Part shown: positions 23,529 to 50,313 of the stretch, in pieces
How the letters are laid out: every line of letters starts with the position of its first letter
Numbering within the stretch: position 1 is the stretch's first letter
Assembly: GCA_033549025.1 (NCBI GenBank)
Contig: JAWSUS010000006.1
Span: 64,001-128,000, forward strand
Direction: 5' to 3'
DNA length: 64,000 nt
Source: Desulfuromonadales bacterium
GTDB lineage: Bacteria > Desulfobacterota > Desulfuromonadia > Desulfuromonadales > SZUA-540
The notes under the pieces: model-generated
Told to the model about the DNA's origin: nothing
Seen by the model: only the letters and a program-made list of their open reading frames with translations
Database searches by the model: none
Translations under genes and position numbers: made by a program

Positions 23529-24935
23529 TCAGACCCCGCCGCCCATAACCCGGTAGAGCGTTACCTGATTGGCCTGGCGAGCCAGAAGCGCGTTGATGAG
23601 ATTCTGCTGCGCGCTGAAGAGGGCGCGCTGAGAATCAAGGACGTTGAGAAAACTGCTGATCCCTTTGCTGAAACGGGCTTCCGACAGCCGGTAGGTTGCC
23701 GCTGTCGCTTCCACCAGCGCTGTCTGTGCGGCGATCTCTTCATCAATGGTGCTCCGCTGGGCAAGTGCGTCACTGACCTCCCGAAAAGCCGCCTGAATGG
23801 CGCCTTCATACCGCGTGAGCAGAATGTCCCGATCGACCTTGGATACCGCCAGCCTGGCTCGCAAGCTGCCGGCATTGAATATGGGCAAGGTCAGTCCTGG
23901 CGCAAAAGTCCAGGCCCGAGAGTCGGAATCAAAAAGGTCGGACAACTCGGTGCTGGCCAGCCCGGCCGAGGCCGTGAGGGAAATGCGGGGGAAAAAGGCG
24001 GCCCTTGCCGCGCCGATATTGGCGTAGGCTCCCTTGAGATGGTGTTCGGCGGCCAGAATGTCGGGCCGGCGCAGCAGGACTTCCGAGGGAAGGCCAGCTG
24101 ATACAAGGTTGATGTCGACGACCTGGCTTAGGCTGTCTGGCAGCCGGTCGGTTGGCAGTTCTGTACCGGTCAGCAGTCGCAGGGCGTTTTCTCCTTCCGC
24201 CACTATGCGGGTGTACACGGCGATTTGAATTCTGGCCCCTTCGACGGTGGTGCTGGCCTGGCGCACTTCGAGTTCGGAGGCAACCCCAGCCTCGAAGCGA
24301 CGGTGGGTCAAGTCGTAGGTCGCCTGGTGGCTCTTCAGGGTTTCTTCCGCCAAGGAGAGCTGTTCGTGGGCGGCAGCCAGTCTGAGATAGCTTGCGGCCA
24401 CCTCGGAAATCAGGGAAATCTGCGCTGCGCTCCGGGCTTCCTCGCTGGCCAGATAGGCTTCGAGAGCCTGTTTTTTGAGACTGCGAAGGCGCCCGAAAAA
24501 GTCGATCTCCCAGGAGCTTAACCCCAGGTTGACATCAAATTGCTCCCATGTCCGTTCGCTGCCGGTCAAAATGCCGGGATCGTGCTGGCGTGAAAATCCG
24601 GCCCCGGCATTGACGGCCGGGAATAGCCCGGACCGCTGGATGCGGTACTGGGCACGGGCGCGTTCGATGTTGAGGGTGGCCTCACGCAGGTCACGGTTAT
24701 GTTCCAGCGCGTTGGCGATAAGGGTGCGCAGGTTCGGGTCGGTGAAGAAGGTCTGCCACGACAGGTCGGCCATCGTCTTGTCCGCTGAGAGTTCGGTCCT
24801 GCTTTGGTACGCCGCACCCTGGGGCCAATTCTGCGGTACGGGGGCCTCGGGGCGTTGGTAGTCAGGTGCCAGGGTGGCGCAGCCGGCCAAGGCGGGACCT
24901 ACGCATAACATCATAATTATAAGTAACTTTCTCAT
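23529..24935 (-). CDS. RND efflux outer-membrane lipoprotein (OprM/NodT family)
   Basis: Lipobox LAGC, LAPDYQRP, WEIDFFGRLRS, LRRPDI and AARAAFFP. Confidence 0.95.
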   Translation of the reverse strand: MRKLLIIMMLCVGPALAGCATLAPDYQRPEAPVPQNWPQGAAYQSRTELSADKTMADLSWQTFFTDPNLRTLIANALEHNRDLREATLNIERARAQYRIQRSGLFPAVNAGAGFSRQHDPGILTGSERTWEQFDVNLGLSSWEIDFFGRLRSLKKQALEAYLASEEARSAAQISLISEVAASYLRLAAAHEQLSLAEETLKSHQATYDLTHRRFEAGVASELEVRQASTTVEGARIQIAVYTRIVAEGENALRLLTGTELPTDRLPDSLSQVVDINLVSAGLPSEVLLRRPDILAAEHHLKGAYANIGAARAAFFPRISLTASAGLASTELSDLFDSDSRAWTFAPGLTLPIFNAGSLRARLAVSKVDRDILLTRYEGAIQAAFREVSDALAQRSTIDEEIAAQTALVEATAATYRLSEARFSKGISSFLNVLDSQRALFSAQQNLINALLARQANQVTLYRVMGGGV

Positions 24936-24936
24936 G

Positions 24937-27900
24937 TCAATGCCCCTTTGCTGCTTGGGCTGCAGCTGCTCTGGCCTCCGCGCGCGCCTTATCCCGCCCG
25001 AAGGTCTTTTTGATCAGTACGTAAAACAGGGGAGCGAAAATCGTCACCAGGAAGGTCGAGGTAACGACCCCGCCCAAAACTGCCGTGCCGATGGCCGTCT
25101 GCGCTCCGGCGCCGGCGCTGCTGGCCAGCGCCAGTGGTAAAACACCGAAACCGAAGGCCAGCGATGTCATGATGATGGGTCTCAGCCTGAGTTTGGAGGC
25201 TTCGAGAGTGGCTTCTATCAGGTCCATGCCGCTATCGACCCGGTCCTTGGCAAACTGGACGATGAGAATAGCGTTTTTGGTGGTCAAGCCCAGAGTCGTC
25301 AGCAAACCGATCTGGAAATATACGTCATTGGGTTTGCCGAGCAGAGTCGAGGCGATAACGCCACCGATGGCTCCTAGCGGCAGAGTCAGCAAAATGGAGA
25401 AGGGGATCGGCCAGCTTTCGTACAAGGCCGCAAGACACAGGAAAATAACCAGCACCGAAAAAGCGTACAAGAGCCCTGTTTGCGAACTGCCTTGCCGTTC
25501 CTGATAAGAGAGGCCATTCCAGTCGTAGCCAACCCCTTGCGGGAGTTTGGTCACGAAATCCTCCATTTTGGCCATGGCTTCGCCGGAACTGTATCCCTTG
25601 GCAGGTTCCCCCAGGATGTTAATGGAAGGAAAGCCGTTAAAGCGTTCCAGACGGGGACTGCCGTAACTCCAGTTGCCGGTGGCAAAAGCGCTGAATGGCA
25701 CCATCCTCCCTTTATCGTTGCGTACATAGAGTTTTTCCAAATGTTCCGGCAGCATTCGGTAAGGCGCATCGGCCTGCACATAGACCCGTTTAACCCGGCC
25801 GCGCTGAATAAAATCGTTGACGTATGCGCTGCCAAAGGCCGCGGAGATTGTGTTGTGAATGGTGTTGATGGATACGCCCTGAGCCCCGGCTTTTTCCCAG
25901 TCGACATTGACGCGGTATTCGGGTACGTCTTCCATGCCGTTGGGGCGGACCTTGGTCAGAACATCGCTCTGCGCCGCCATGCCGAGAAGCTGGTTGCGGG
26001 CCTCCATCAATTTGGCATGACCCAGCCCACCGCGGTCGATGAGCTGGAAATCGAATCCCTGAGCTTGTCCCAATTCAACTACCGCCGGTGGTGCAAAGGC
26101 AAACACCATGGCGTTGCGGATTTGAGAAAACTGGCCCATGGCTCGCCCCGCTACCGCGTCCACTTTCAGGCGCGCCTCCTCTCGCAAAGCCCAGTCTTTG
26201 AGTTGAACGAAGGCCAAACCGGCGTTCTGGCCGCGTCCGGAGAAGTTGATGCCGGAAATGGTCATGATCGATTCAACCGCATCAGCCTCATCCTGAAGGA
26301 AATAGTCCCGCACCTGATCCATGACTTCCTGGGTCTGTTCCAGTGTCGAGTTGGCCGGCAGCAACGTCTGGACCATCAGGGTTCCCTGATCCTCATCCGG
26401 AAGATAGGCGGTCGGCATGCGCTGGAAGAGAAGGCCGAGACCAACGACAATCAGCCCGAAAACCAGCATGTATCGCAGCTTTTTACGCAAGGCCTGATCG
26501 ACGATGCGAACGTAAATTGAGCGACTCTTGTAAAAGATTTTGTCAAACCAACGGAAAAAGGGCCGCAGAAACCAGATGGCATTATCCGAGGGTTCATGAC
26601 CTTTGGCGATCGGTTTGAGCATCGAAGCACAAAGAACCGGGGTCAGTACCAGGGCTACCACCACGGAAAGCATCATGGCCGAGATGATCGTCACGGAAAA
26701 CTGGCGATAGATGACCCCGGTGGAGCCGCTGAAAAAAGCCATAGGACCGAATACGGCCGAGAGCACCAGGCCTATGCCGATCAGGGCGCTTGAAATCTCG
26801 CCCATTGATTTATAGGTCGCTTCGCGCGGACCGACCCCCTCCTCGGCCATGATGCGCTCGACATTTTCGACTACGACGATGGCGTCATCCACCAGCAGGC
26901 CGATCGCGAGTACCATGGCGAACATGGTGAGCATGTTGATGGAAAACCCGAACAGGCCGAGGATGGCGAAGGTGCCGAGAATAACCACCGGCACCGCCAT
27001 GGTGGGGATGAGGGTGGCGCGGATGTTCCCCATGAAGAGATACATCACCAGAAAGACGAGCAGGATGGCTTCAAACAGCGTCTTGACCACGCTGTCGATG
27101 GCTACCTCCACGAAGGGGGTCGTGTCATAGGGATAGACCACCTTCATGCCGGGGGGGAAATAGCGACTCATGTCATCCAGCGTGCTGCGGATGGCATCGG
27201 CGGTCTCCAGGGCATTGGCCCCAGCCGCCTGGCGAATAGCGAGACCGGCAGTCGGCATTCCGTTGTAAAACGCCTCGATGTCGTAGGATTCGGTCCCCAG
27301 TTCGGTGCGTCCCACATCGCTGATATGCACAACGGAACCATCTTCATTCACCCGCAACGGAATGTCGGCAAATTCTTCCGGCGTCTGCAGCATACTCTGA
27401 ACAATAATGCTGGCATTGAGGCGCTGCCCCTCAACCGCCGGGGCACCACCGAACTGACCGGCCGAAACCTCGACGTTGTAGGAGCGAAGAGCCGTGACGA
27501 CCTCATCCACCGTCAACCGATATTCCACCAGTTTGTCGGGGTTGAGCCAGATCCGCATGGAATACTGGCTGCCGAAGACCTCGACCTCACCAACACCCGG
27601 CACCCGTGAGAGGGTCTTCTCCAGGTCGGATTGGGCATAGTCGCGCAAGTCGTTGCCGTCCATGCTGCCATCTTCGGAAATCAAGCCGACAACCAGCAGG
27701 TAGTTACGGGTCGACTTACTGACCTTGACCCCCTGGCGTTGTACGACCTCCGGTAAGCTTGCCATGGCCAACTGCAACTTGTTCTGTACCTGAGACCAGG
27801 CCATGTCGGGATCGGTTCCCGGCGCGAAGGTCAGTTCGATACGGGAAGCGCCAGCCGAGTCACTCGTGGCCGACATGTAAAGCATTCTGTCGAAACCGGT

Positions 27901-28110
27901 CATCTTCTGCTCAATGACCTGGGTGACGCTGTTTTCCACGGTTTCCGCCGAAGCCCCCGGATAAAAAGACGTAATGGCGATGGAGGGTGGCGCGATGGGC
28001 GGATACTGGGAAATAGGCAGATTGTAGATCGCCAGGCCGCCGGCCACCATCATGATGATGGCGATAACCCAGGCAAAAACCGGACGGGCAAGAAAGAATC
28101 GTGACAGCAT
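24937..28110 (-). CDS. HAE1 RND multidrug efflux permease (AcrB/MexB family)
   Basis: [40 protein letters not shown] and [11 protein letters not shown]; 1057 aa. Confidence 0.97.
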
Positions 28111-29324
28111 CAGACCCCTCCCTCTTTGCGGGTGGTGGACGCCTGTCCAATGGCTTCGATGACACTTTCGTCTTCATCCTGAATGAGCTCCACCTCCACC
28201 CGATCGCCGGGGCGCACTTTCTGCAAGCCTTCCACAATGAGATGTTCACCCACAGACAGGCCGGAGACAATGAGCCATTGGTCCCCTATGGCTCGCCCTA
28301 CCTCCAGTTGCCTCTGCTCCACCTTGCCCTCTTTGTTTGCCACCATAGCCACTGCCTCCCCTTTGGGATTGCGGGCTACCCCTTGCTGCGGCACCAGAAT
28401 GGCCTGGTCCATGGTTCCTTCTTTGACTACGGCTCTTACGAACATGCCGGGCAAAAGGAGGCGATCGGGGTTGGGGAAGAGCGTACGCAAAATAACCGAA
28501 CCGGTACTCGGGTCGACACTGACATCGGAAAATTGCAGGCGACCGGTATGGGGATAGGGTTCCGCTGTTTCCAGGCGCAGAGAAACCTCGGCTGACTCAG
28601 GGCCTCCGTTGGTCAATCGACCGCCGGCCAGCTTCTGTTTAAGACTGAGAAGTTCCGAAGTGGAGCGGGTGACGTCGACATAGATCGGATCCAGTTGGTG
28701 GATCACCGCCAAGGCCGCAGGCTGGTTGGCTGTCACCAGGGCGCCAACCGTTACGGCGGAGCGCCCTATATGGCCGGATATGGGAGCCTTGACTTCCGTG
28801 TAGCCGAGATTGATGCGGGCGCTTTCCAACGCGGCCCGGGCAGCTTCCACCTGTGCTTCGGCTTGACCAAGGCCTGCCTGGGTATCATCGTACTCTTGCT
28901 TGCTGACCGCATTGACATCGACCAGTTCACCGTAACGCTTTTCCCGCAAACGTATCGTTCTGAGGTCGGCTTCTGCACGAGCCAGTTCAGCCTTGGCCCG
29001 GTTGTAGGCAGCCTGGTACGTCGCCGGATCGATCAGATAGAGGAGTTGCCCGGCTTTGACGTCTTCACCTTCAGTAAAAAATCGCTGTTTGATGATGCCG
29101 GTAACCTGAGGGCGTACCTCGGCCACCTTGAAGGCCGCAGTACGCCCAGGGAGTTCTGTTGACAACGATACGCTGCGAACGCTGACATTAACGGCGCCAA
29201 CCTTGGGTGCTGCCGGGGCTGCCTGTCCGGATGACTGGGGTTCACCCGTTCGCTGGCATCCGAAAAGGGCCAGGGAGAGCGCTATGAAAAGAAAAATTCC
29301 GCATCCTGTTAATTTTTTTTGCAT
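28110..29324 (-). CDS. RND periplasmic adaptor (AcrA/MexA family)
   Basis: Lipobox [21 protein letters not shown] and APISGHIG. Confidence 0.95.
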
Positions 29325-29389
29325 GAGACACCTCTGTAATGAAGATAAGCCCCGGCAGAAGCCGGTGGACGACGTGGCCTGGTTTATGA

Positions 29390-29962
29390 TTATTTGCGGA
29401 CGGCATCCCAGCAGGCGGCCACCGTCTGGTCGATCAAAGATTCATTCAACACAATAAAACCGAGATCCTGGTCCCGGATCAGGCAGATCAAGGGACCAAA
29501 AAACAGAGCGCAAAGGATTTCGATGGGTAGGGGTTTGAGCGCTTTTTCTTTCAGGGCTTCCATCAGAATGTCGTGCAGAAAGCCTGATCCTGAGGGGCCC
29601 AGCAGGCGATCTCGGCGATAGGTCACGCCGAAAGGCGAATTCTGAAATTGTTCCAAAAAGCGAAAATCCATGGGAGCCTGCTGGCAGTAATCCATAAAGA
29701 AACGGCCAATATGAAAAAAACGCTCCTGCATGAGCAGATCTGTTGGCAAATTCTTCGTCATCGCTGATTGAAACCGGTGTTCCAGGGTTTCGTACAAAGC
29801 GTGAATCAGGCTTTCTTTGCTGTGAAAGCAGCGGTAAATCGTGCCCATGGCGATCTGAGCCTGACTGGCAATGACCGACATTGGCGAATCGTGAAAACCA
29901 TGAATGGAGATAACCTCCAAGGCGGCCTGCAGGATTTTTTCCGGTCTGTCATTCGTGTGCAT
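29390..29962 (-). CDS. TetR/AcrR family regulator
   Basis: N-terminal HTH (IASQAQIAMGTIYRCFHSKESL). Confidence 0.9.
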   Translation of the reverse strand: MHTNDRPEKILQAALEVISIHGFHDSPMSVIASQAQIAMGTIYRCFHSKESLIHALYETLEHRFQSAMTKNLPTDLLMQERFFHIGRFFMDYCQQAPMDFRFLEQFQNSPFGVTYRRDRLLGPSGSGFLHDILMEALKEKALKPLPIEILCALFFGPLICLIRDQDLGFIVLNESLIDQTVAACWDAVRK

Positions 29963-29977
29963 AAACCAAACCTTTAA

Positions 29978-29997
29978 TTAATTGACTAGTCAGTCAA
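29978..29997. promoter_or_regulatory. Putative TetR operator, copy 1
   Basis: Palindromic TTGACTAGTCAGTCAA; 18/19 match to the inverted copy at 30623-30641; downstream of a minus-strand TTGCCG-17-TAAATG promoter candidate (30039-30011). Confidence 0.75.
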
Positions 29998-30041
29998 AAA
30001 AAGACCGAACCATTTAGACGGTCGACAGTTTTACGGCAAGT

Positions 30042-30608
30042 TTAACTCTTCAGGGCGTCCCAGCAGGAAGAGATGGTTAACTGAACCATCTCGTCATCGA
30101 CGGGGGTACCGCGATTGGCGTGTTCTTTGGCCAGCGAAGACAGGGGGCCAAAGGCTAGCGCCTCAAGGCACAGAAGGGGGATGTTTTTAATGATGCGCTG
30201 TTCGCGAGCTTGCAGGAGCAGGGTGTGAAAGAGCTGATTTTCCTCACGAAAGCCCTGACCTTGATCGTTGAGAGGGGAATAATGATAGAGTTCAGCGAAT
30301 TTGAATTCGGCCGGGTTGGTGAGGAAATAACGCAGAAGGTTAAGCAACATGCGGTGGAGTCGTTCCTGAGTGGAGAGGTCGGCGGAAACATCTTTCAAAA
30401 CCTCAGAATCAATTCTTTCACGAATTTCTTTGAACAGAGAATGGATCAGTTCCTCTTTGCTTTTGAAATGAAAGAAAAGTGTGCCACTGGCCACACCGGC
30501 TCTTTCGGCGATGAGAGCGGTAGAGGCCCCGTTGAAACCGTTTTCGGCAAAAAGCTCCAAAGCCGCCTGGAGCAGGGCGCGACGTTTTTGTTCCTTTTTC
30601 CCTGACAT
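30042..30608 (-). CDS. TetR/AcrR family regulator (paralog of the neighbouring TetR)
   Basis: HTH IAERAGVASGTLFFHFKSKEEL; start moved to ATG at 30608 with GGAG RBS; shares ALxFGPL and CWDA motifs with its neighbour. Confidence 0.9.
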   Translation of the reverse strand: MSGKKEQKRRALLQAALELFAENGFNGASTALIAERAGVASGTLFFHFKSKEELIHSLFKEIRERIDSEVLKDVSADLSTQERLHRMLLNLLRYFLTNPAEFKFAELYHYSPLNDQGQGFREENQLFHTLLLQAREQRIIKNIPLLCLEALAFGPLSSLAKEHANRGTPVDDEMVQLTISSCWDALKS

Positions 30609-30622
30609 AAAATCTCCAAAAA

Positions 30623-30668
30623 TGACTGACCAGTCAATTAAAATATGGACGATCAATCCTTTTGTCAA
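30623..30668 (-). promoter_or_regulatory. sigma70 promoter with overlapping TetR operator, copy 2
   Basis: Minus strand reads TTGACA-17 bp-TATTTT, immediately followed by aattgactggtcagtca (palindrome TGACT-N4-AGTCA). Confidence 0.8.
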
Positions 30669-30747
30669 GACAAAATTCAACTGGCCTAAAACCTTTTGAC
30701 TTCACGGTGTTCTCCATTGGCTGGAGTTTTACCCCAGCAGGAAGGCC

Positions 30748-31347
30748 TCACGGAGATGATTTCTGCATGAGGACCGTACTGAATTCATCCAGCATTCGGT
30801 TGCGGATAACTTGACAGCCGAGCCGTTCGTACTTCTGGCGAACGTCATAGTTATATTCCCAGAGCATCCCAGACAATAGAATATGAGCGCCTGGAGCCGC
30901 TTTTGGCACAAGCGCGTCAGCAACGGCGAGGAGAATGTCGCCATAGATGTTCGCCAGAATGAGGTCAAAAGATCCGGCGGCAACCTGGTCCAGAGTGCCG
31001 CACAGGTGATCAATTTTATCAACGACGCCGTTGAGATGACTGTGGTGTTGGCAGGTGGCGACCGCCGCTGGATCGATATCGACACAAAGTGCGTGGGATG
31101 CCCCGAGTTTGAGGGCCGCGATGGCCAGAATGCCGGTGCCGCTGCCCAAATCGAGCAGGGTTTTTCCGGACAGATCGGGTAGGTCCTCCAGGATTTCCAG
31201 GCAACTGGCGGTGGTTTCATGTTCGCCCGATCCGAAGGCTCCGGAAGCCATAACCAAGGGCAGACGGTCCTCCTGAACTGGGGTATCGTCAGGGGGGTGA
31301 ATACGAAAACGGTGTCCTACGGTAAAGGGGGCGTACTCGCGTCCCAT
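30748..31347 (-). CDS. Short PrmA-like SAM-dependent methyltransferase (catalytic domain only)
   Basis: AFGSGEHETT, LDLGSGTGILAI, DIDPAAV, ANI and LSG PrmA motifs; about 199 aa with no N-terminal domain; ATG at 31347 with AAAGGA RBS. Confidence 0.8.
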   Translation of the reverse strand: MGREYAPFTVGHRFRIHPPDDTPVQEDRLPLVMASGAFGSGEHETTASCLEILEDLPDLSGKTLLDLGSGTGILAIAALKLGASHALCVDIDPAAVATCQHHSHLNGVVDKIDHLCGTLDQVAAGSFDLILANIYGDILLAVADALVPKAAPGAHILLSGMLWEYNYDVRQKYERLGCQVIRNRMLDEFSTVLMQKSSP

Positions 31348-31376
31348 AAAGGAATATCCTTTCAAGGTGATCCAAT

Positions 31377-32387
31377 TCAGGTCACACAGATAAAGTCGTG
31401 CTGATCCTTGAAGCCGTTTCGATCAGCCCACTGACGGATTTGCTGCCGAGCGCCGGCGGCACCAACCGTAATGAGCATTTTGCCTTGATCCGTCCGAAGT
31501 TCTGTGGGGGCGATGACCGGGGCCCCATGGATGGTCTGGCCCACTTTGCGAGGATCGATATCCACCCAGCGTGCCACGTGAATTCCCTGGCGCAGCAGAA
31601 CCTTCCGCCAGGCTTTGCCTTCGAGCCCGGCGCCCCAGAGAGTAACCTCCCGCTGGCCCCTTAAGTAGTCCTGACAGAGATAGTGGATTTTGCAGTCCCG
31701 CATAGCGGTCAGCGTACAGTTCGCGGCCGTACGGGTCAGTCTGTCGGGGCGGTCTCGCCAGTAGAAGAGGGTGCCGGGCAGGCGCGCAAAGCGGGCACCG
31801 GCGCGGATAAGACGAAGCCAGAGATCGTAGTCTTCCGCCCAGGGCAGCGCACGATAGCCGCCCGCCTCCAGGACCGCCTGACGTCGGAACATGACGCTGG
31901 GATGGGCCAGGGGGGACTCGACGTAGCGGTCGCGCTGAATATCGTCATGCGTGAGCAGGCTGTTTTGCCAGGCCTCGTAGGTTTTCATCCCCTCCGAAAG
32001 TTGGGGCCTAGGAAAATGTCGTATCTGGCAGGAGACGACAGCCACCTCGGGATGGTGTTGCATATACGCGTGCTGAGCGAACAGCCGCTGCGGGTGGCAG
32101 ATGTCGTCCCCATCCATGCGGGCTACCAGAGGGGCGCGGCACTTTTCAAGTCCGAGATTGAGCGCATCGACAAGGCCCAAAGCGGGCTGTTTTACAACGT
32201 GAATTTTATCCGGGTACGTCTGCCTCGCCTGGGCAAGGATTTCTGGAGTACGGTCAGTGGAGCCGTCGTCCACGACTACAAGCTCCCAGTTGGGTAGGGA
32301 CTGTCTGAATATGGAAGCGAGGGCGGCGGGCAGAAAACGTTCCTCGTTACGCACGGCCAGCAGGAGCGATACAGCGGGAGATGTCAT
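31377..32387 (-). CDS. GT2-family glycosyltransferase with C-terminal Rossmann-like domain
   Basis: VVVDDGSTD, RMDGDD (DxD) and EDYDLW, plus C-terminal WGAGxxGK and VDIDPRKVG. Confidence 0.88.
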   Translation of the reverse strand: MTSPAVSLLLAVRNEERFLPAALASIFRQSLPNWELVVVDDGSTDRTPEILAQARQTYPDKIHVVKQPALGLVDALNLGLEKCRAPLVARMDGDDICHPQRLFAQHAYMQHHPEVAVVSCQIRHFPRPQLSEGMKTYEAWQNSLLTHDDIQRDRYVESPLAHPSVMFRRQAVLEAGGYRALPWAEDYDLWLRLIRAGARFARLPGTLFYWRDRPDRLTRTAANCTLTAMRDCKIHYLCQDYLRGQREVTLWGAGLEGKAWRKVLLRQGIHVARWVDIDPRKVGQTIHGAPVIAPTELRTDQGKMLITVGAAGARQQIRQWADRNGFKDQHDFICVT

Positions 32388-33328
32388 AGTCCCAGGCTGC
32401 GCAGTATAAAAAGGGCGACGCTGTAGGTGAGGGCCGATAGCAGGGTGGACATCATGACGATAGAGCCGGCCAGTTCGGCATCGCCTTTCATCTGGTGGGC
32501 CATGATGTAGGTCGCGGTGGCGGCGGGGGTTCCTGCCATCAGCACCCCGATCCCCAAATCCATGCCCCGAATCCCCATGCCGTAAAGCAAAAAGGCCCCC
32601 AGCAGAGGCAGCCAGACGATTTTAATGCCCGTGGCGAAGGCGGCCCGCACGAGATCTCCTTTGAGCTTTTCGAGGGAGAATGAGCCACCGATGGCGATCA
32701 GGGCCAAAGGCAGGGTCATACCGGTGGCGATATCGAGACTGCGGTCCAGAATAATCGGCATCGGCAGGCCAAAAAAGCTCCAGGCAATGCCGGCAAAGGA
32801 GGCGATGATGAGGGGATTGAGAGCGACCTGCTTCACCCAGAAGGACAGTCCCCGGTCGCCATCTTGCCCTCGGTGAGGCAGCAGCAGGGCGAGAATGGCG
32901 AAAAAATTGAGAACGGGCACCAGAAAACCGGTGAGAATGCCCGCCCGCGTGAAGCCTTCAGGGCCATAGGCGTTGAAAACTATCGCCAATCCCATATAAG
33001 CCAGATTGCCGCGAAAAGAGCCCTGGCTGAATGATCCCGCTGCTTCGGGAGGATAGCGGCGAATGAGGGCGTAGCCGTAGGAGGCGAAGAAACCGATGGC
33101 AATGATGAGGGCGGACCCGATGACGAGCCTGCCATTGAAATTACTGAAGAAATCGGCAGTGCCGATTTTGTAGAAAAGTAGCAGGGGCAGACAGATGTAG
33201 TAGACGAGACGGTTAGTCTGGAAGAGAAAGGTCGCATCGATCAGGTCGAGACGCTTCAGGCCATACCCCAACAGAATGACCAGAAACACCGGTACGACAA
33301 TAACAAGAATTTCCAGGAAAAGGGACAC
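32384..33328 (-). CDS. AEC (auxin efflux carrier) family transporter
   Basis: About 10 TM segments; RGNLAYMGL, NPLIIA, PLALIAIGG and TPAA motifs; 4-nt overlap with the GT2 start. Confidence 0.88.
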   Translation of the reverse strand: MSLFLEILVIVVPVFLVILLGYGLKRLDLIDATFLFQTNRLVYYICLPLLLFYKIGTADFFSNFNGRLVIGSALIIAIGFFASYGYALIRRYPPEAAGSFSQGSFRGNLAYMGLAIVFNAYGPEGFTRAGILTGFLVPVLNFFAILALLLPHRGQDGDRGLSFWVKQVALNPLIIASFAGIAWSFFGLPMPIILDRSLDIATGMTLPLALIAIGGSFSLEKLKGDLVRAAFATGIKIVWLPLLGAFLLYGMGIRGMDLGIGVLMAGTPAATATYIMAHQMKGDAELAGSIVMMSTLLSALTYSVALFILRSLGL

Positions 33329-39244: not shown

Positions 39245-39679
39245 ATGCAGGAAGTCAAAAAAATCTTTCACGACTACCTGGCCCAGCAGGGGCTTAAAAG
39301 TACCCGACAACGGGAGATCATCCTTGACGAGTTTCTCCGTTTCGGATCCCATCCCTCCACCGAAGACCTCTATCTCACGCTACGTAAAAAACATCCCCAG
39401 ATTGGCTACGCAACCGTACACCGCACGCTGAAGCTGCTGGCCGAATGCGGTCTGGCCGAAGGCCATAACTTTGGGGACGGGCAGACCCGCTACGAGTCCT
39501 GTGTCGATGAACAGCATCATGACCACCTCGTCTGTACCGATTGTGGCGCCATACTGGAGTTCTATGACCCGCGCATTGAGAAACTGCAGGATGAAGTCGC
39601 CAGGGACCATGGCTTCACGATCCGAAATCATCGACTCGAACTCTATGGTCTCTGCTCCAAATGCACTCAAAAAAAATAA
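39245..39679 (+). CDS. fur: Ferric uptake regulator
   Basis: GLKSTRQR, IGYATVHRTL, HHDHLVCxxCG and YGLCxxC; upstream Fur box. Confidence 0.93.
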   Translation: MQEVKKIFHDYLAQQGLKSTRQREIILDEFLRFGSHPSTEDLYLTLRKKHPQIGYATVHRTLKLLAECGLAEGHNFGDGQTRYESCVDEQHHDHLVCTDCGAILEFYDPRIEKLQDEVARDHGFTIRNHRLELYGLCSKCTQKK

Positions 39680-39730
39680 CAGCCAGATTCACCATGACCT
39701 CATTCATCCATACTCCTGAAGGACACCCCC

Positions 39731-41692
39731 ATGGCCGCCGTTGATAAAGGCCAAGACGCTCCCCGTATTATTCTTGTCGGCAGCCCCAACGTCGGCAAGA
39801 GCTCTCTGTTTAACGAGCTGACCGGAACGTACACCACCGTTTCAAATTATCCTGGTACATCCGTCGAAATTTCCCGCGGCCACTGCGATATCGCTGGGAC
39901 CCGCTATGAGGTCCTCGACACGCCTGGCATGTACTCGCTCATACCGATTTCCGAAGAGGAAAAGGTGGCGCGGGATATCCTGCTGAACGAAACGCCCCAC
40001 GTCGTCATTCACGTTATTGATGCCCGCAATGTTGAGCGCATGCTCCCCATGACCCTTCAGCTCATCGAAGCGGGCCTTCCCATGATGCTGGTCATCAATA
40101 TTATGGATGAGGCGGAGCGACTGGGCATCCAGATTGATTTCCCCGCGCTGCGTGAGCGCCTCGGCATTCCCGTGATCGGGGCGGCGACCGCGCGCCGCCG
40201 TGGTCTTCAGGAAATTCGGCAGGCGATTGACAATCAGGAATTCGGCGTCGGTGCCCCGTTTTCCTACTCCCCCGACCTCGAAGACGATATTCATGAAATA
40301 TCAGCCTGTTTTCAGAGCGATTACCGACTCAGCCGCCGCTCGCTCGCGTTGCTTCTTTTGCAGAAGGACACACATATCCAGGCGCTGGTCGGGGACAGGG
40401 AAGGGGAGTTGGCTGAGCCGCTGATGGAGTGCGTCAAGAAGGTCTCCTTTGCCCGACGTTCTGATCTTCACCTTCATATCAGCCTGGAACGCAAAAGAAT
40501 TACCCGCAATCTACTCAACGGAGTTCTGACCCAGGAAGGGGGCAGAAAACCGGCGCTGTCGGACCGCCTTTCTGCCCTGACCATGAATCCCTGGACCGGG
40601 TTCCCCTTCTTGTTGGCTACCCTCTATTTCGGGCTGTACAAGTTTGTCGGCGGCTTTGGTGCCGGTACCGTGGTCGATTTTCTGGAGTCGACGCTTTTTG
40701 AGGCGTACCTCATCCCCTGGCTCATGCACCTGGGGGATCGCTTTCTGCCCTGGTACTGGCTGCACGAACTCATGGTGGGGGAATACGGCATATTTACCCT
40801 GGCCATACGCTATGCCGTCGCCATTGTGCTGCCTATCGTCGGTACCTTTTTTCTCGCCTTCTCCATTATTGAAGATACCGGCTATTTTCCGCGTCTGGCC
40901 ATGCTGGTTGATCGGATTTTCAAAAAAATCGGGCTGAACGGTCGAGCGGTCATTCCTCTGGTGCTCGGTTTTGGCTGCGACACCATGGCTACGATCGTTA
41001 CACGCACCCTGGAAACCGTACGGGAGAGAATCATCGCCACAGTCCTGCTGGCCCTGGCTATCCCCTGTTCGGCTCAACTTGGCGTCATTCTCGGCCTTTT
41101 ATCCAGCGTGCCCGGGGCCTTGGCCGTCTGGACCCTCAGCATGGCTCTTGTCTTTCTGCTCATCGGGTTTTTGGCTGCCCGTCTGGTGCCGGGAGAACAG
41201 CCCATGTTTTACATGGAAATCCCTCCCTTGCGCATGCCCCAGTTGCGCAACGTGATAACCAAGACGCTGACCCGGATGCAGTGGTACTTTGTCGAGATAT
41301 TCCCCTTGTTCATTATCGCTTCCGTGCTTTTGTGGGCCGGCAAACTCAGTGGGGGCCTGGCCTGGGTGGTGAAGGGGATGGAGCCCGTCATGACGATGCT
41401 GGGGCTGCCCTCACAGGCCTCCGCCGCCTTTATTTTCGGATTCTTTCGGCGGGATTTCGGCGCGGCCGGGCTTTATGACATGCAGACATCCGGTCTGCTT
41501 TCGCCGGTACAATTGACTGTTGCTGCGGTTACTCTGACCCTTTTCGTGCCCTGTGTGGCCCAATTTCTGGTTATGAACAAAGAGAGGGGATGGAAGGTTG
41601 CCTTCGGGATTTTTATCTTCGTTACTCTTCTCGCGTTTGGGGTCGGCTGGCTTCTCAATAAGATGCTGCTCTTTACGGGTGTACTGGCATGA
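39731..41692 (+). CDS. feoB: Ferrous iron transporter FeoB
   Basis: GSPNVGKS, NYPGTSV and DTPGMYSL GTPase motifs; GFGC, IPCSAQ and PC gate motifs. Confidence 0.96.
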   Translation: MAAVDKGQDAPRIILVGSPNVGKSSLFNELTGTYTTVSNYPGTSVEISRGHCDIAGTRYEVLDTPGMYSLIPISEEEKVARDILLNETPHVVIHVIDARNVERMLPMTLQLIEAGLPMMLVINIMDEAERLGIQIDFPALRERLGIPVIGAATARRRGLQEIRQAIDNQEFGVGAPFSYSPDLEDDIHEISACFQSDYRLSRRSLALLLLQKDTHIQALVGDREGELAEPLMECVKKVSFARRSDLHLHISLERKRITRNLLNGVLTQEGGRKPALSDRLSALTMNPWTGFPFLLATLYFGLYKFVGGFGAGTVVDFLESTLFEAYLIPWLMHLGDRFLPWYWLHELMVGEYGIFTLAIRYAVAIVLPIVGTFFLAFSIIEDTGYFPRLAMLVDRIFKKIGLNGRAVIPLVLGFGCDTMATIVTRTLETVRERIIATVLLALAIPCSAQLGVILGLLSSVPGALAVWTLSMALVFLLIGFLAARLVPGEQPMFYMEIPPLRMPQLRNVITKTLTRMQWYFVEIFPLFIIASVLLWAGKLSGGLAWVVKGMEPVMTMLGLPSQASAAFIFGFFRRDFGAAGLYDMQTSGLLSPVQLTVAAVTLTLFVPCVAQFLVMNKERGWKVAFGIFIFVTLLAFGVGWLLNKMLLFTGVLA

Positions 41693-41874
41693 AATGTGGT
41701 TTTTGCCAGAAAGAACTGCCGGACGACGCTCTTGAAAAACAGCCTCGGTGTGGTCTGTGCCCTGGGGGTTGTCGGAAGATTCACTGCCCCTTCTGCGGCT
41801 ATGACAACCCGGTTATGCCTTCCTATTTAAAACGTTTGGCCAGGAAAAAGAACGATCAAGGAGGATCCCAATGA
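41689..41874 (+). CDS. Small Cys-rich (7 Cys) metal-binding protein coupled to feoB
   Basis: CxxC...CxxCxxxC...CPxCG; ATGA overlaps with both feoB and ideR. Confidence 0.75.
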   Translation: MKCGFCQKELPDDALEKQPRCGLCPGGCRKIHCPFCGYDNPVMPSYLKRLARKKNDQGGSQ

Positions 41875-42518
41875 AGCTTTCTGAAAAAGCCGAGGAAATT
41901 CTTGAGGCGCTGTGGATAGCGACGGAAGAAGAAGGGGAGAATGGCGCCCACTTCCAGACCCTCGGTGTCGGCCCTGATGACGAAGGGCTTCGGGAACTGG
42001 ATCGCCTGGCCTACATTGAGGTCAGGGGAGAGCGTGTCCACCTGCGTCAGGAAGGCCGGGAGGAGGCCAAAATGACCGTTCGCCGCCACCGGCTGGCTGA
42101 ACGCCTCATGATGGATGTGCTGGACATCAAAGGGGAAAGCGGCGACGCCAAGGCCTGTGAGTTTGAACATCTTCTGCACCAGGGCGTAGATACCAAAATC
42201 TGCACGCTGCTCAATCATCCCACCACCTGCCCGCATGGAAAACCTATTCCCCCGGGCAAATGCTGCCTGGAAGCCCAGGCGCGCGGGGAGGCCGGCGTTG
42301 TACCCCTCACGGAGGTCAATGCGGGGCAAAAGGGAGAGATTGCCTATCTGTCCGTGACCGATCCCAAAAAGATGCAAAAACTGATGAGTCTGGGAGTCCT
42401 CCCCGGCAATCAGTTGCGGCTGGCGCGGACTTTTCCGGCTTACGTCTTCACGGTTGGAAATTCCGAGTTTGCCGTCGACGAAGACCTGGCCAGGGAAATC
42501 TTTGTCAGAAAAATCTGA
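41871..42518 (+). CDS. ideR: DtxR/IdeR-family metal-dependent repressor with C-terminal FeoA domain
   Basis: RRHRLAERL, ACEFEH and TTCPHGKPIP, followed by FeoA-like KLMSLGVLPG. Confidence 0.85.
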   Translation: MKLSEKAEEILEALWIATEEEGENGAHFQTLGVGPDDEGLRELDRLAYIEVRGERVHLRQEGREEAKMTVRRHRLAERLMMDVLDIKGESGDAKACEFEHLLHQGVDTKICTLLNHPTTCPHGKPIPPGKCCLEAQARGEAGVVPLTEVNAGQKGEIAYLSVTDPKKMQKLMSLGVLPGNQLRLARTFPAYVFTVGNSEFAVDEDLAREIFVRKI

Positions 42519-48138: not shown

Positions 48139-49173
48139 ATGATGCGTCTTGAAGATTTCGATTTTGAACTGCCGGCCGAGCTCATAGCGCAGTATCCCCC
48201 CGATTCCCGCGAAGAATCTCGTCTGATGGTTCTGGACAGGTCTCGCCGGAACATACTCTGTGGCAATTTTCCAGAAATCGTCGATCAATTTCGTTCAGGG
48301 GATGTTCTTGTTCTCAACGATACCAAGGTCATCCCTGCCAGGCTTCATGGAACCAAGGCGACTGGAGGCAAGATCGAGGTCTTTCTGGTGCGCCGCCTCG
48401 AATCAAACCAGGAAGACTGGGTCTGTCTGACCAAATGCTCCAAGACTCCCAAAGTCGGTAGCCGTCTGCTGCTTGGCGGCGAGATTGAGGGAATCGTTCT
48501 CGGCGAGGGAGAGGCCCCTTATAAGGTCATTCGTTTCACCTGTGCCGGGGATTTTCATCAACTGCTGGAAAAGGTCGGACGCATTCCATTGCCACCGTAT
48601 ATTCGCCGGGAAGACACCCCGGTGGATCGGGAACGCTATCAGACCGTTTTCGCCCGTGCGAAGGGTGCCGTGGCGGCCCCGACCGCCGGTCTGCATTTTA
48701 CCCGGGACATTCTTGCCGCGTTGCAGGAAAAAGGGGTCGAAATTGTCTCACTGACCCTGCATGTCGGCTTGGGTACTTTCTTGCCCGTACGGGTCGAAAA
48801 TATCCTGGAACACCGTATGCATGGGGAATCGTTTCATATACCAGAAGCGACGGCCGATACCATTAATCTGGCCAAAAAAGAAGGTCGCCGCGTGATCGCC
48901 CTGGGTACGACAACGACCCGTACTCTCGAATTTGCCCTGTCCGGCGAAAAGGCTGTTAAGGCAGGTGAAGGTATCAGCGATCTTTTCATTTATCCAGGCT
49001 TCAGGTTCAGGATTGTCGATGCGCTGATTACCAATTTCCACCTTCCTTGTTCCACCTTGATGATGCTGGTCTCCGCTTTTGCCGGGCGTGATTTTATCTT
49101 GGAAGCATATCGCCGAGCGGTTGAGGAACGTTTTCGTTTTTTCAGCTATGGCGATTGCATGATGATTGTATAG
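48139..49173 (+). CDS. queA: S-adenosylmethionine:tRNA ribosyltransferase-isomerase
   Basis: DFDFELPAELIAQYP, PLPPYI, AAPTAGLHF, TNFHLP and RFFSYGD. Confidence 0.98.
   Translation: MMRLEDFDFELPAELIAQYPPDSREESRLMVLDRSRRNILCGNFPEIVDQFRSGDVLVLNDTKVIPARLHGTKATGGKIEVFLVRRLESNQEDWVCLTKCSKTPKVGSRLLLGGEIEGIVLGEGEAPYKVIRFTCAGDFHQLLEKVGRIPLPPYIRREDTPVDRERYQTVFARAKGAVAAPTAGLHFTRDILAALQEKGVEIVSLTLHVGLGTFLPVRVENILEHRMHGESFHIPEATADTINLAKKEGRRVIALGTTTTRTLEFALSGEKAVKAGEGISDLFIYPGFRFRIVDALITNFHLPCSTLMMLVSAFAGRDFILEAYRRAVEERFRFFSYGDCMMIV

Positions 49174-50313
<1,140 letters not shown>

Follow-up and report, generated by a model that had tools for sequence, protein, structure and literature searches.

Do bacteria, too, attach sugars to the queuosine (Q) of their tRNAs? 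A single gene raises this question in the window, by which we mean the whole 64,000-nucleotide stretch of the Desulfuromonadales contig analyzed here. An initial annotation had likened its product, a GT2 glycosyltransferase, to the eukaryotic enzyme QTGAL (formerly B3GNTL1), which, according to two reports, makes galQ on tRNA-Tyr (PMC11755703, PMC12313893). Loss of galQ in mosquitoes matches loss of the gene (PMC11705514), C. elegans possesses the gene and galQ was not seen on its pre-tRNA-Tyr (PMC12313893), and for fruit flies the two papers disagree (PMC11705514, PMC12313893). In the parts of the literature available to us, sugar-bearing forms of queuosine come from vertebrates, from a mosquito and, as gal-Q, from Aplysia (PMC11705514, PMC10690763, 10.1101/2025.11.13.688303). 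Likewise, gluQ is the sole bacterial Q derivative named in the accessible text of one source, where the sugars are those of vertebrates (PMC10690763), and the words ‘homolog’ and ‘ortholog’ are absent from the preprint 10.64898/2026.06.28.735034. Our literature search, for which subscription journals lay mostly outside coverage, found nothing on a bacterial QTGAL homolog or on bacterial glycosylated queuosine.

The gene and its protein product

The open reading frame proved real, starts with an ATG and encodes the protein P0001, whose features are the following:

31377..32387, minus strand: QTGAL-like GT2 glycosyltransferase gene, P0001 (336 residues, pI 9.1)
31668..32387, minus strand: GT-A catalytic domain, residues 1–240 (Pfam PF00535, fold matches, AF2)
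32103..32114, minus strand: D92-x-D94-D95 motif, metal and nucleotide-sugar binding by general GT2 knowledge
31956..31979, minus strand: Y137-x-x-W140-x-N142-x-L144 helix, a signature common to QTGAL, putatively at the acceptor site
31830..31835, minus strand: E185-D186, putative catalytic base region by general knowledge of inverting GT2s
31380..31661, minus strand: small C-terminal Rossmann domain, residues 243–336, Rex/CoA-binding/NeuD-N-like, collinear with its counterpart in QTGAL, putatively tRNA-contacting
31614..31637, minus strand: W251-G-A-G-x-x-G-K258 glycine loop, judged by pattern counts across bacterial, eukaryotic and other GT2 rows

The earlier reading of this protein as a 336-residue GT2 with an additional Rossmann-like domain at its C-terminus agrees with both Pfam and structure prediction. 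The GT2 profile PF00535 matches residues 7–173 (E 1e-30), and an AF2 model that draws on 112 relatives, with high confidence throughout (pLDDT 97.9), displays a GT-A fold up to about residue 240, followed by a small β/α (Rossmann) domain. Fold searches returned chondroitin polymerase and SpsA (Z about 24) across residues 1–243, and neither sequence nor fold searches found a solved structure that matches both domains over the full length. The absence of a transmembrane helix and a signal peptide was also rightly noted: the top Kyte-Doolittle 19-mer reaches 1.04, and the first β-strand of the model begins at residue 6, which leaves no room for a signal peptide. By hydropathy and model, P0001 is soluble, and the proteins of its family are basic, with a median pI of 8.6. 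Its closest relatives carry the labels Desulfuromonadales or Geobacteraceae. A promoter scan remained at chance level (three found, 2.0 expected).

The D92-x-D94-D95 motif is invariant in 112 bacterial rows, as are its equivalents D112, D114 and D115 in the 41 eukaryotic rows described below; E185-D186 is invariant in both sets and common in generic GT2s, too. Near-invariant residues peculiar to the bacterial family are E157, H162, R216 and R314. The best NCBIfam matches, EpsE and EpsD, reach 102 bits against a cut-off of 450 and cover the core only, and no cut-off was reached for the polysaccharide GT2 equivalogs EpsE, EpsD, TuaG and WcaA. Such polysaccharide GT2s (EpsE, EpsD, SpsA and the chondroitin polymerase K4CP) share the GT-A core and the DxD and ED motifs with P0001, but they show no match to the C-terminal Rossmann domain, and the P0001 family is mostly found outside glycan clusters. 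The nearest characterized look-alikes of this second domain are generic Rex/NeuD-type domains, with weak NeuD/PglB-N and Rex Rossmann matches in NCBIfam (residues 245–326) and weak matches to Rex NAD-binding, CoA_binding (PF02629) and NeuD-VioB N-terminal domains (residues 241–333, E 1e-6 to 2e-5). Unlike these, it is fused behind a GT-A domain in the P0001 family and is basic, with a net charge of +7 from residue 212 of P0001 onward.

Relationship to eukaryotic QTGAL

For the comparison with eukaryotes, metagenomes were scanned for a short motif from the initial annotation. This yielded 32 loci, six of them having long intronless eukaryotic-type frames, and one such frame as query retrieved, from many animals, proteins that NCBI names QTGAL or B3GNTL1. 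The eukaryotic alignment of 41 rows comprises 36 of these matches, the record of the query itself and four of the metagenome frames; the latter five are motif-bearing by selection, and the human protein is not included. Several QTGAL-like metagenome frames are intronless (L232, L234, L244, L250, L261), while many other matches are exon-split; the intronless frames would be transcripts, intron-poor genes or retrocopies.

Pairwise identity between P0001 and QTGAL is only 21% (BLASTP), while the bacterial and the eukaryotic profile align over 321 collinear columns (hhalign; probability 100, E 4.9e-50, 22% identity). Because any two GT2s align across the core, we split the eukaryotic profile into halves; the sets scored exclude three GTDB rows truncated where their contigs end, as well as the divergent phylum rows L108 and L109. 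The N-terminal half does not discriminate, with family medians of about 44 bits versus 35 for other GT2s. With the C-terminal half, by contrast, the family reaches medians of 32.7 bits (76 motif-selected rows) and 26.3 bits (27 HMM-selected rows) and P0001 itself 32.3 bits, compared to a median of −0.9 among the 98 other GT2s, where a single protein scores above 20. The signal that sets the family and QTGAL apart from other GT2s is thus their C-terminal half. When residues 205–336 were used as a query in the ESM Atlas, a cluster named QTGAL appeared at rank 3 (0.91).

Three sequence signatures are likewise shared and nearly missing from other GT2s. The Y/F..W.N.L pattern occurs in 87 of 112 bacterial, 39 of 41 eukaryotic and 2 of 98 other GT2 rows; the W-G/N-A-G..G-K/R pattern in 46, 37 and none of these rows, respectively; and the terminal EG.D-F/Y pattern in 38, 38 and none. 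P0001 has the first two and a divergent form of the third, DQHDF. The two families further share the DxDD, ED and D-x-D-x-x-K motifs, the glycine loop in the form W-x-A-G-x-x-G-K/R, their solubility and their two-domain architecture: the 24 listed secondary structure elements of the P0001 model recur in the same order in the model of frog QTGAL, which has three extra, in a comparison of element order rather than coordinate superposition. The initial annotation had quoted five motifs running collinearly along the human protein. They start at residues 137, 185 (inside a stretch at 183), 248, 271 and 328 of P0001 and do align with QTGAL in the profile alignment; the protein compared there is that of the frog (P0339), not the human one. 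Nor is the likeness to B3GNTL1 limited to the generic GT2 core, given the C-half profile, the 321-column alignment and the signatures.

In the host genome, the top match of the eukaryotic profile is P0001. Other results are less clear-cut. Across 251 genomes of the host phylum, this profile gave 34 matches, among which the nine family members hold four of the top five places and all four matches extending past position 240; no bacterial group closer to the profile was found in these genomes. By whole-profile score, other GT2s overlap the family, with up to 94.8 bits versus 86.2 for P0001. In a free tree of 68 rows, computed from the core only and after one outgroup row had been dropped as too short, the family (99/95) and the eukaryotes (100/99) each held together but were not joined, being grouped in 10% of bootstraps, and the eukaryotic stem was long (1.26 changes per column). 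Forcing the two together in a 42-row subset, again core only, improved the likelihood by 2.45 log-units and was not rejected (AU p 0.545). By the core alone, a sister relationship is neither supported nor contradicted. Finally, the residues W181, H231, C291, Y303 and K333, invariant in eukaryotes, are not kept in the bacterial family, which also lacks an insert of ~11 residues in the eukaryotic C-terminal domain. For these last two reasons, we file the proteins as a bacterial homolog family and not as QTGAL. On the weight of the profile, motif and model comparisons, it is nevertheless very probable that the two-domain protein shares common ancestry with eukaryotic QTGAL over its full length.

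A viral origin or a role in phage DNA modification was considered and rejected: the 80 viral loci kept are core-only GT2s without a C-terminal match, a scan with the eukaryote-type motif gave no viral contigs, and none of four phage matches reached 80% of the C-terminal half.

Family distribution and fusions

Full-length relatives of about 335 residues are plentiful; the best 150 representatives at the 50% identity level span 59% to about 37% identity. A motif scan of GTDB species gave at least 120 stretches, and 119 of those listed are family members. Among the matches listed with titles (80), we find Gemmatimonadota, Myxococcota, Chloroflexota, Desulfobacterota, Gammaproteobacteria, Acidobacteriota, Verrucomicrobiota, Planctomycetota, Bacteroidota and Nitrospirota. 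In genome surveys that scored just 7–10 candidates per genome, a member is present in 29 of 251 host-phylum genomes (at least 294 bits, the next matches being core-only with at most 208 bits), in 12 of 201 Chloroflexota genomes and in none of 301 genomes of the Actinomycetota, a phylum in which tgt is patchy; misses are possible at this sampling. The gene is single-copy in the genomes listed, and its length is conserved across many phyla. The family is therefore widespread but patchy, and it is without a name.

In Aureibacter and Persicobacter, both Bacteroidota, large secondary replicons also carry family-like genes (L295:4623-5615 and L296); these genes are 30–31% identical over the C-terminal half, and the context of the L295 gene is orphan. 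Fusions were seen in single sequences, namely to a 2-thiouracil desulfurase domain (P0197), a CYTH domain (P0178) and a methyltransferase domain (P0169). As all three are single-member clusters, we rejected them as Rosetta stones, together with the N-terminus of P0144, which gave no match in Pfam or in the genome and seems to be an extension due to faulty gene calling.

Genomic neighborhood

The gene lies between two others on the same strand:

32384..33328, minus strand: AEC-family (Mem_trans) transporter, overlapping the start of the glycosyltransferase gene by 4 nt
30748..31365, minus strand: short PrmA-like methyltransferase of 205 residues, 11 nt downstream of the glycosyltransferase gene

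The PrmA-like protein matches positions 104–294 of the PrmA profile only, i.e. its C-terminal two thirds; a second PrmA-like gene, 34% identical to the window copy, is found on contig C10. The pairing with both neighbors recurs in only one locus of 108, which belongs to a genome of the host's taxonomic order, and the linkage to the AEC transporter is probably incidental. This sample contains 740 called genes; annotation covered one representative for each of 76 clusters, 113 single genes directly beside the family gene and 9 long frames of the family, while about 280 non-adjacent singles were left out. Most annotated neighbors are housekeeping or unrelated genes, and apart from generic ABC ATPases and kinases, none recurs beyond related genomes in the 108 loci. 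A GT4, epimerase or CpsB gene is found near the family gene in eight loci (L111, L116, L128, L145, L159, L173, L174, L190). For the window, the earlier remark that no polysaccharide genes lie nearby stands: none was found among 41 scanned ORFs, barring lptF/G-type permeases about 28 kb off. Similarly, tblastn with the QueA, Tgt, QueG and QueC proteins of the host gave no match in 150 loci (110 flanked, 795 kb; the flanks of the 29 host-phylum loci measured 1.5 kb). Since less than one match is expected by chance, this is neither enrichment nor depletion, and we rejected the neighborhood as evidence concerning Q.

Translation-related neighbors occur in one or two loci each (L086/L087, L147/L187, L160/L168, L156) and comprise a PP-loop (TtcA-like) gene, a Leu/Phe-tRNA-protein transferase, an HflX-type GTPase and a HemN_C radical SAM gene. 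A gene upstream of the family gene in one genome of the Magnetococcales (L149:5616-7952) matches a T6SS Tle1-like phospholipase family. Elsewhere in the window, two tandem TetR regulator genes, with a GC content of 0.49–0.50 versus 0.61 for the glycosyltransferase gene, are followed by what reads as an RND efflux set (MFP, AcrB-like, TolC-like; 23529-30680, minus strand), and an iron-uptake block (39245-42518, plus strand) combines Fur-like and FeoB-like genes, by sequence reading, with a DtxR/FeoA regulator (Pfam).

Queuosine synthesis in the host and in other carriers

The genes that would provide the proposed substrate are unlinked to the glycosyltransferase gene:

48139..50313, plus strand: queA–tgt, Q-pathway genes

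The initial annotation had pointed to this pair, and both genes are indeed present, with queA (48139-49173) and tgt (49180-50313) passing their NCBIfam cut-offs. As support they carry little weight, because tgt is near-universal in the host phylum (249 of 251 genomes) and no Q gene adjoins the family gene in the loci retrieved; in the host, the pair lies ~16 kb away on the opposite strand, upstream of secD/secF. Elsewhere, the host genome (100% complete) contains queC, queG, gluQ and a second tgt, as well as genes for tRNA-Tyr, tRNA-Asp, tRNA-Asn and tRNA-His. At the level of its genes (queC, tgt, queA, queG and the tRNA genes), the host should thus be able to place mature Q in GUN tRNAs. The second tgt is full-length (G000:C1:192213-193301; L294), both copies have the canonical Cys and Val, and two tgt matches were found in nine of nine sampled genomes of the host class.

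Each of the 79 carrier genomes that came out of the motif scan contains tgt (77 over the cut-off, two split across contigs), so that none provides the case of a homolog without tgt that had been named as refuting a role in Q modification. Among the first 50 carriers, 49 have a QueA match, 45 of them above the cut-off; 41 have QueG and six more QueH, two have neither reductase but a GGSLG-type TGT, and one has neither reductase. The proposed check of co-occurrence thus gave a complete overlap with tgt, which is not significant where a baseline exists: in Chloroflexota, tgt is found in 12 of 12 carriers and in 166 of 189 non-carriers (p 0.37), tallies that include three unpublished genomes (G461, G326, G458), all non-carriers. 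Given the baselines in this phylum and in that of the host, we rejected tgt co-occurrence as strong evidence.

The Chloroflexota deserve separate mention, as they gave a result that might have refuted a role in Q modification: 10 of their 12 carriers lack queA, and the five of these tested also lack queG. In all ten, and in three more Chloroflexales-type carriers, the TGT pocket is altered, with Cys replaced by Leu, Gln by His and GGL[AS]VG by GGSLG, whereas queA-bearing carriers retain the canonical pocket. According to the accessible text of PMC11570991, queuine-salvaging TGTs typically show GG[LS][AS]G, a pattern that GGSLG does not literally match, and a GGSLG pocket was modeled 4.0 Å from queuine. 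Direct queuine insertion is the probable meaning of the variant, and since its pocket is probably queuine-accepting, the queA-less carriers may still make Q-tRNA. These ten carriers probably form one clade and therefore represent one event, not ten. The variant genes (L263-L273, L292, L293) contain an insert along with the changed pocket, and two of their genomes, which are without canonical queA, possess a divergent QueA-like gene of about 30% identity (L276, L277).

Candidate functions

An orphan, soluble and basic glycosyltransferase would suit an enzyme whose substrate is already cytoplasmic. The best single explanation for the family, to which we give an even chance, would be hexosylation of Q34 in tRNA. 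For it, we count the 321-column profile match, the signal in the C-terminal half, the signatures, the common order of structure elements, the QTGAL cluster in the ESM Atlas, the rank of P0001 in its own genome, the orphan context, the basic pI, the presence of tgt in all 79 carriers, QueG or QueH in 47 of 50 carriers and the GGSLG-type TGT in all ten queA-less ones; against it, the 21% identity, the overlap of scores, the core tree with its neutral AU test, the lost invariant residues and those peculiar to bacteria, the lack of nearby Q genes, the tgt baselines, the probable single clade of queA-less carriers with its imperfect fit to the published TGT pattern, the C. elegans case and, as far as the accessible literature goes, the description of glycosylated Q from animals only.

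On this explanation, a cytoplasmic, metal-dependent inverting GT2 would take a hexose from its nucleotide-sugar donor, probably UDP-Gal or UDP-Glc, and attach it to one hydroxyl of the diol on the cyclopentene ring of queuosine-34, in a tRNA with a GUN anticodon. Going by general GT2 knowledge and the shared conservation, the DxDD motif would bind the donor, E185-D186 would activate the acceptor, the acceptor pocket would be lined by the Y137/W140/N142 helix, and the Rossmann domain at the C-terminus, being basic, would help to hold the tRNA. A bacterial modifier of the same diol is already known in GluQ-RS (YadB), a GluRS paralog that modifies Q on tRNA-Asp and whose gene is present in the host genome; it is unrelated to P0001 and attaches a glutamyl ester, not a sugar. 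By analogy with QTGAL, and with tRNA-Asp being served by the host's GluQ-RS, tRNA-Tyr would be the likeliest target.

A different cytoplasmic acceptor, such as a protein, a small molecule or a cofactor-bound ligand, is the foremost alternative, although we consider it rather unlikely. Here, the ancestry shared with QTGAL would hold, Q specificity would have arisen on the long eukaryotic branch, and the ligand of the Rossmann domain would resemble a nucleotide, as it does in Rex or NeuD-N domains. The low identity (21%) and the length of the eukaryotic stem (1.26 changes per column) are in keeping with such a shift, as are the differences between bacteria and eukaryotes in the invariant residues around the acceptor site and the resemblance of the C-terminal domain to Rex, CoA-binding and VioB domains. 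There is also no genomic link to Q genes, and with the gene in just 29 of 251 genomes, most tgt-bearing relatives do without it. Set against this are the shared Y/W/N helix, near-absent from other GT2s, the fact that none of the 79 carriers lacks tgt, and the lack of any recurring partner gene that would indicate another substrate.

An improbable alternative is a step in the synthesis of a cell-envelope glycan (LPS, EPS, glycolipid or protein-glycan) by a GT2 encoded apart from its cluster. The top NCBIfam matches (EpsE/EpsD), the top PDB matches (polysaccharide glycosyltransferases) and the eight of 108 loci with a GT4, epimerase or CpsB neighbor speak for it, but the NCBIfam scores fall far short of the cut-off (102 versus 450) and cover the core only, and a single-copy gene of conserved length in many phyla would be unlike the variable glycosyltransferases of surface glycans. 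More doubtful still is a role in storage, salvage or turnover, with free queuine, queuosine or some other modified nucleoside as the acceptor in place of intact tRNA, for which the mostly queA-less Chloroflexota carriers with their probable salvage-type TGT (10 of 12), the desulfurase fusion P0197 and the overlapping AEC gene of the host could be cited, except that the Chloroflexota pattern probably reflects one clade, the fusion is a single sequence, and the AEC link is confined to two genomes, its family being unnamed in the main text of a survey of Q transporters (PMC11130926).

Implications

Returning to hexosylation of Q34, the broader proposal that a bacterial family of many phyla glycosylates this nucleoside, and that QTGAL descends from a bacterial enzyme of like function, hangs evenly in the balance. 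If true, sugar-modified Q would not be restricted to animals and bacteria would gain a tRNA modification, while a large unannotated GT2 family would obtain a function and QTGAL an origin. In some bacteria, among them the host analyzed here, certain tRNAs would bear glutamyl-Q and others hexosyl-Q. Some of the Chloroflexota would follow a route resembling that of eukaryotes, in which queuine is inserted directly and then glycosylated. The family would also offer small bacterial proteins for structural work, where we found no solved two-domain relative. Even if the acceptor is something else, the family would still show what a tRNA glycosyltransferase evolved from.
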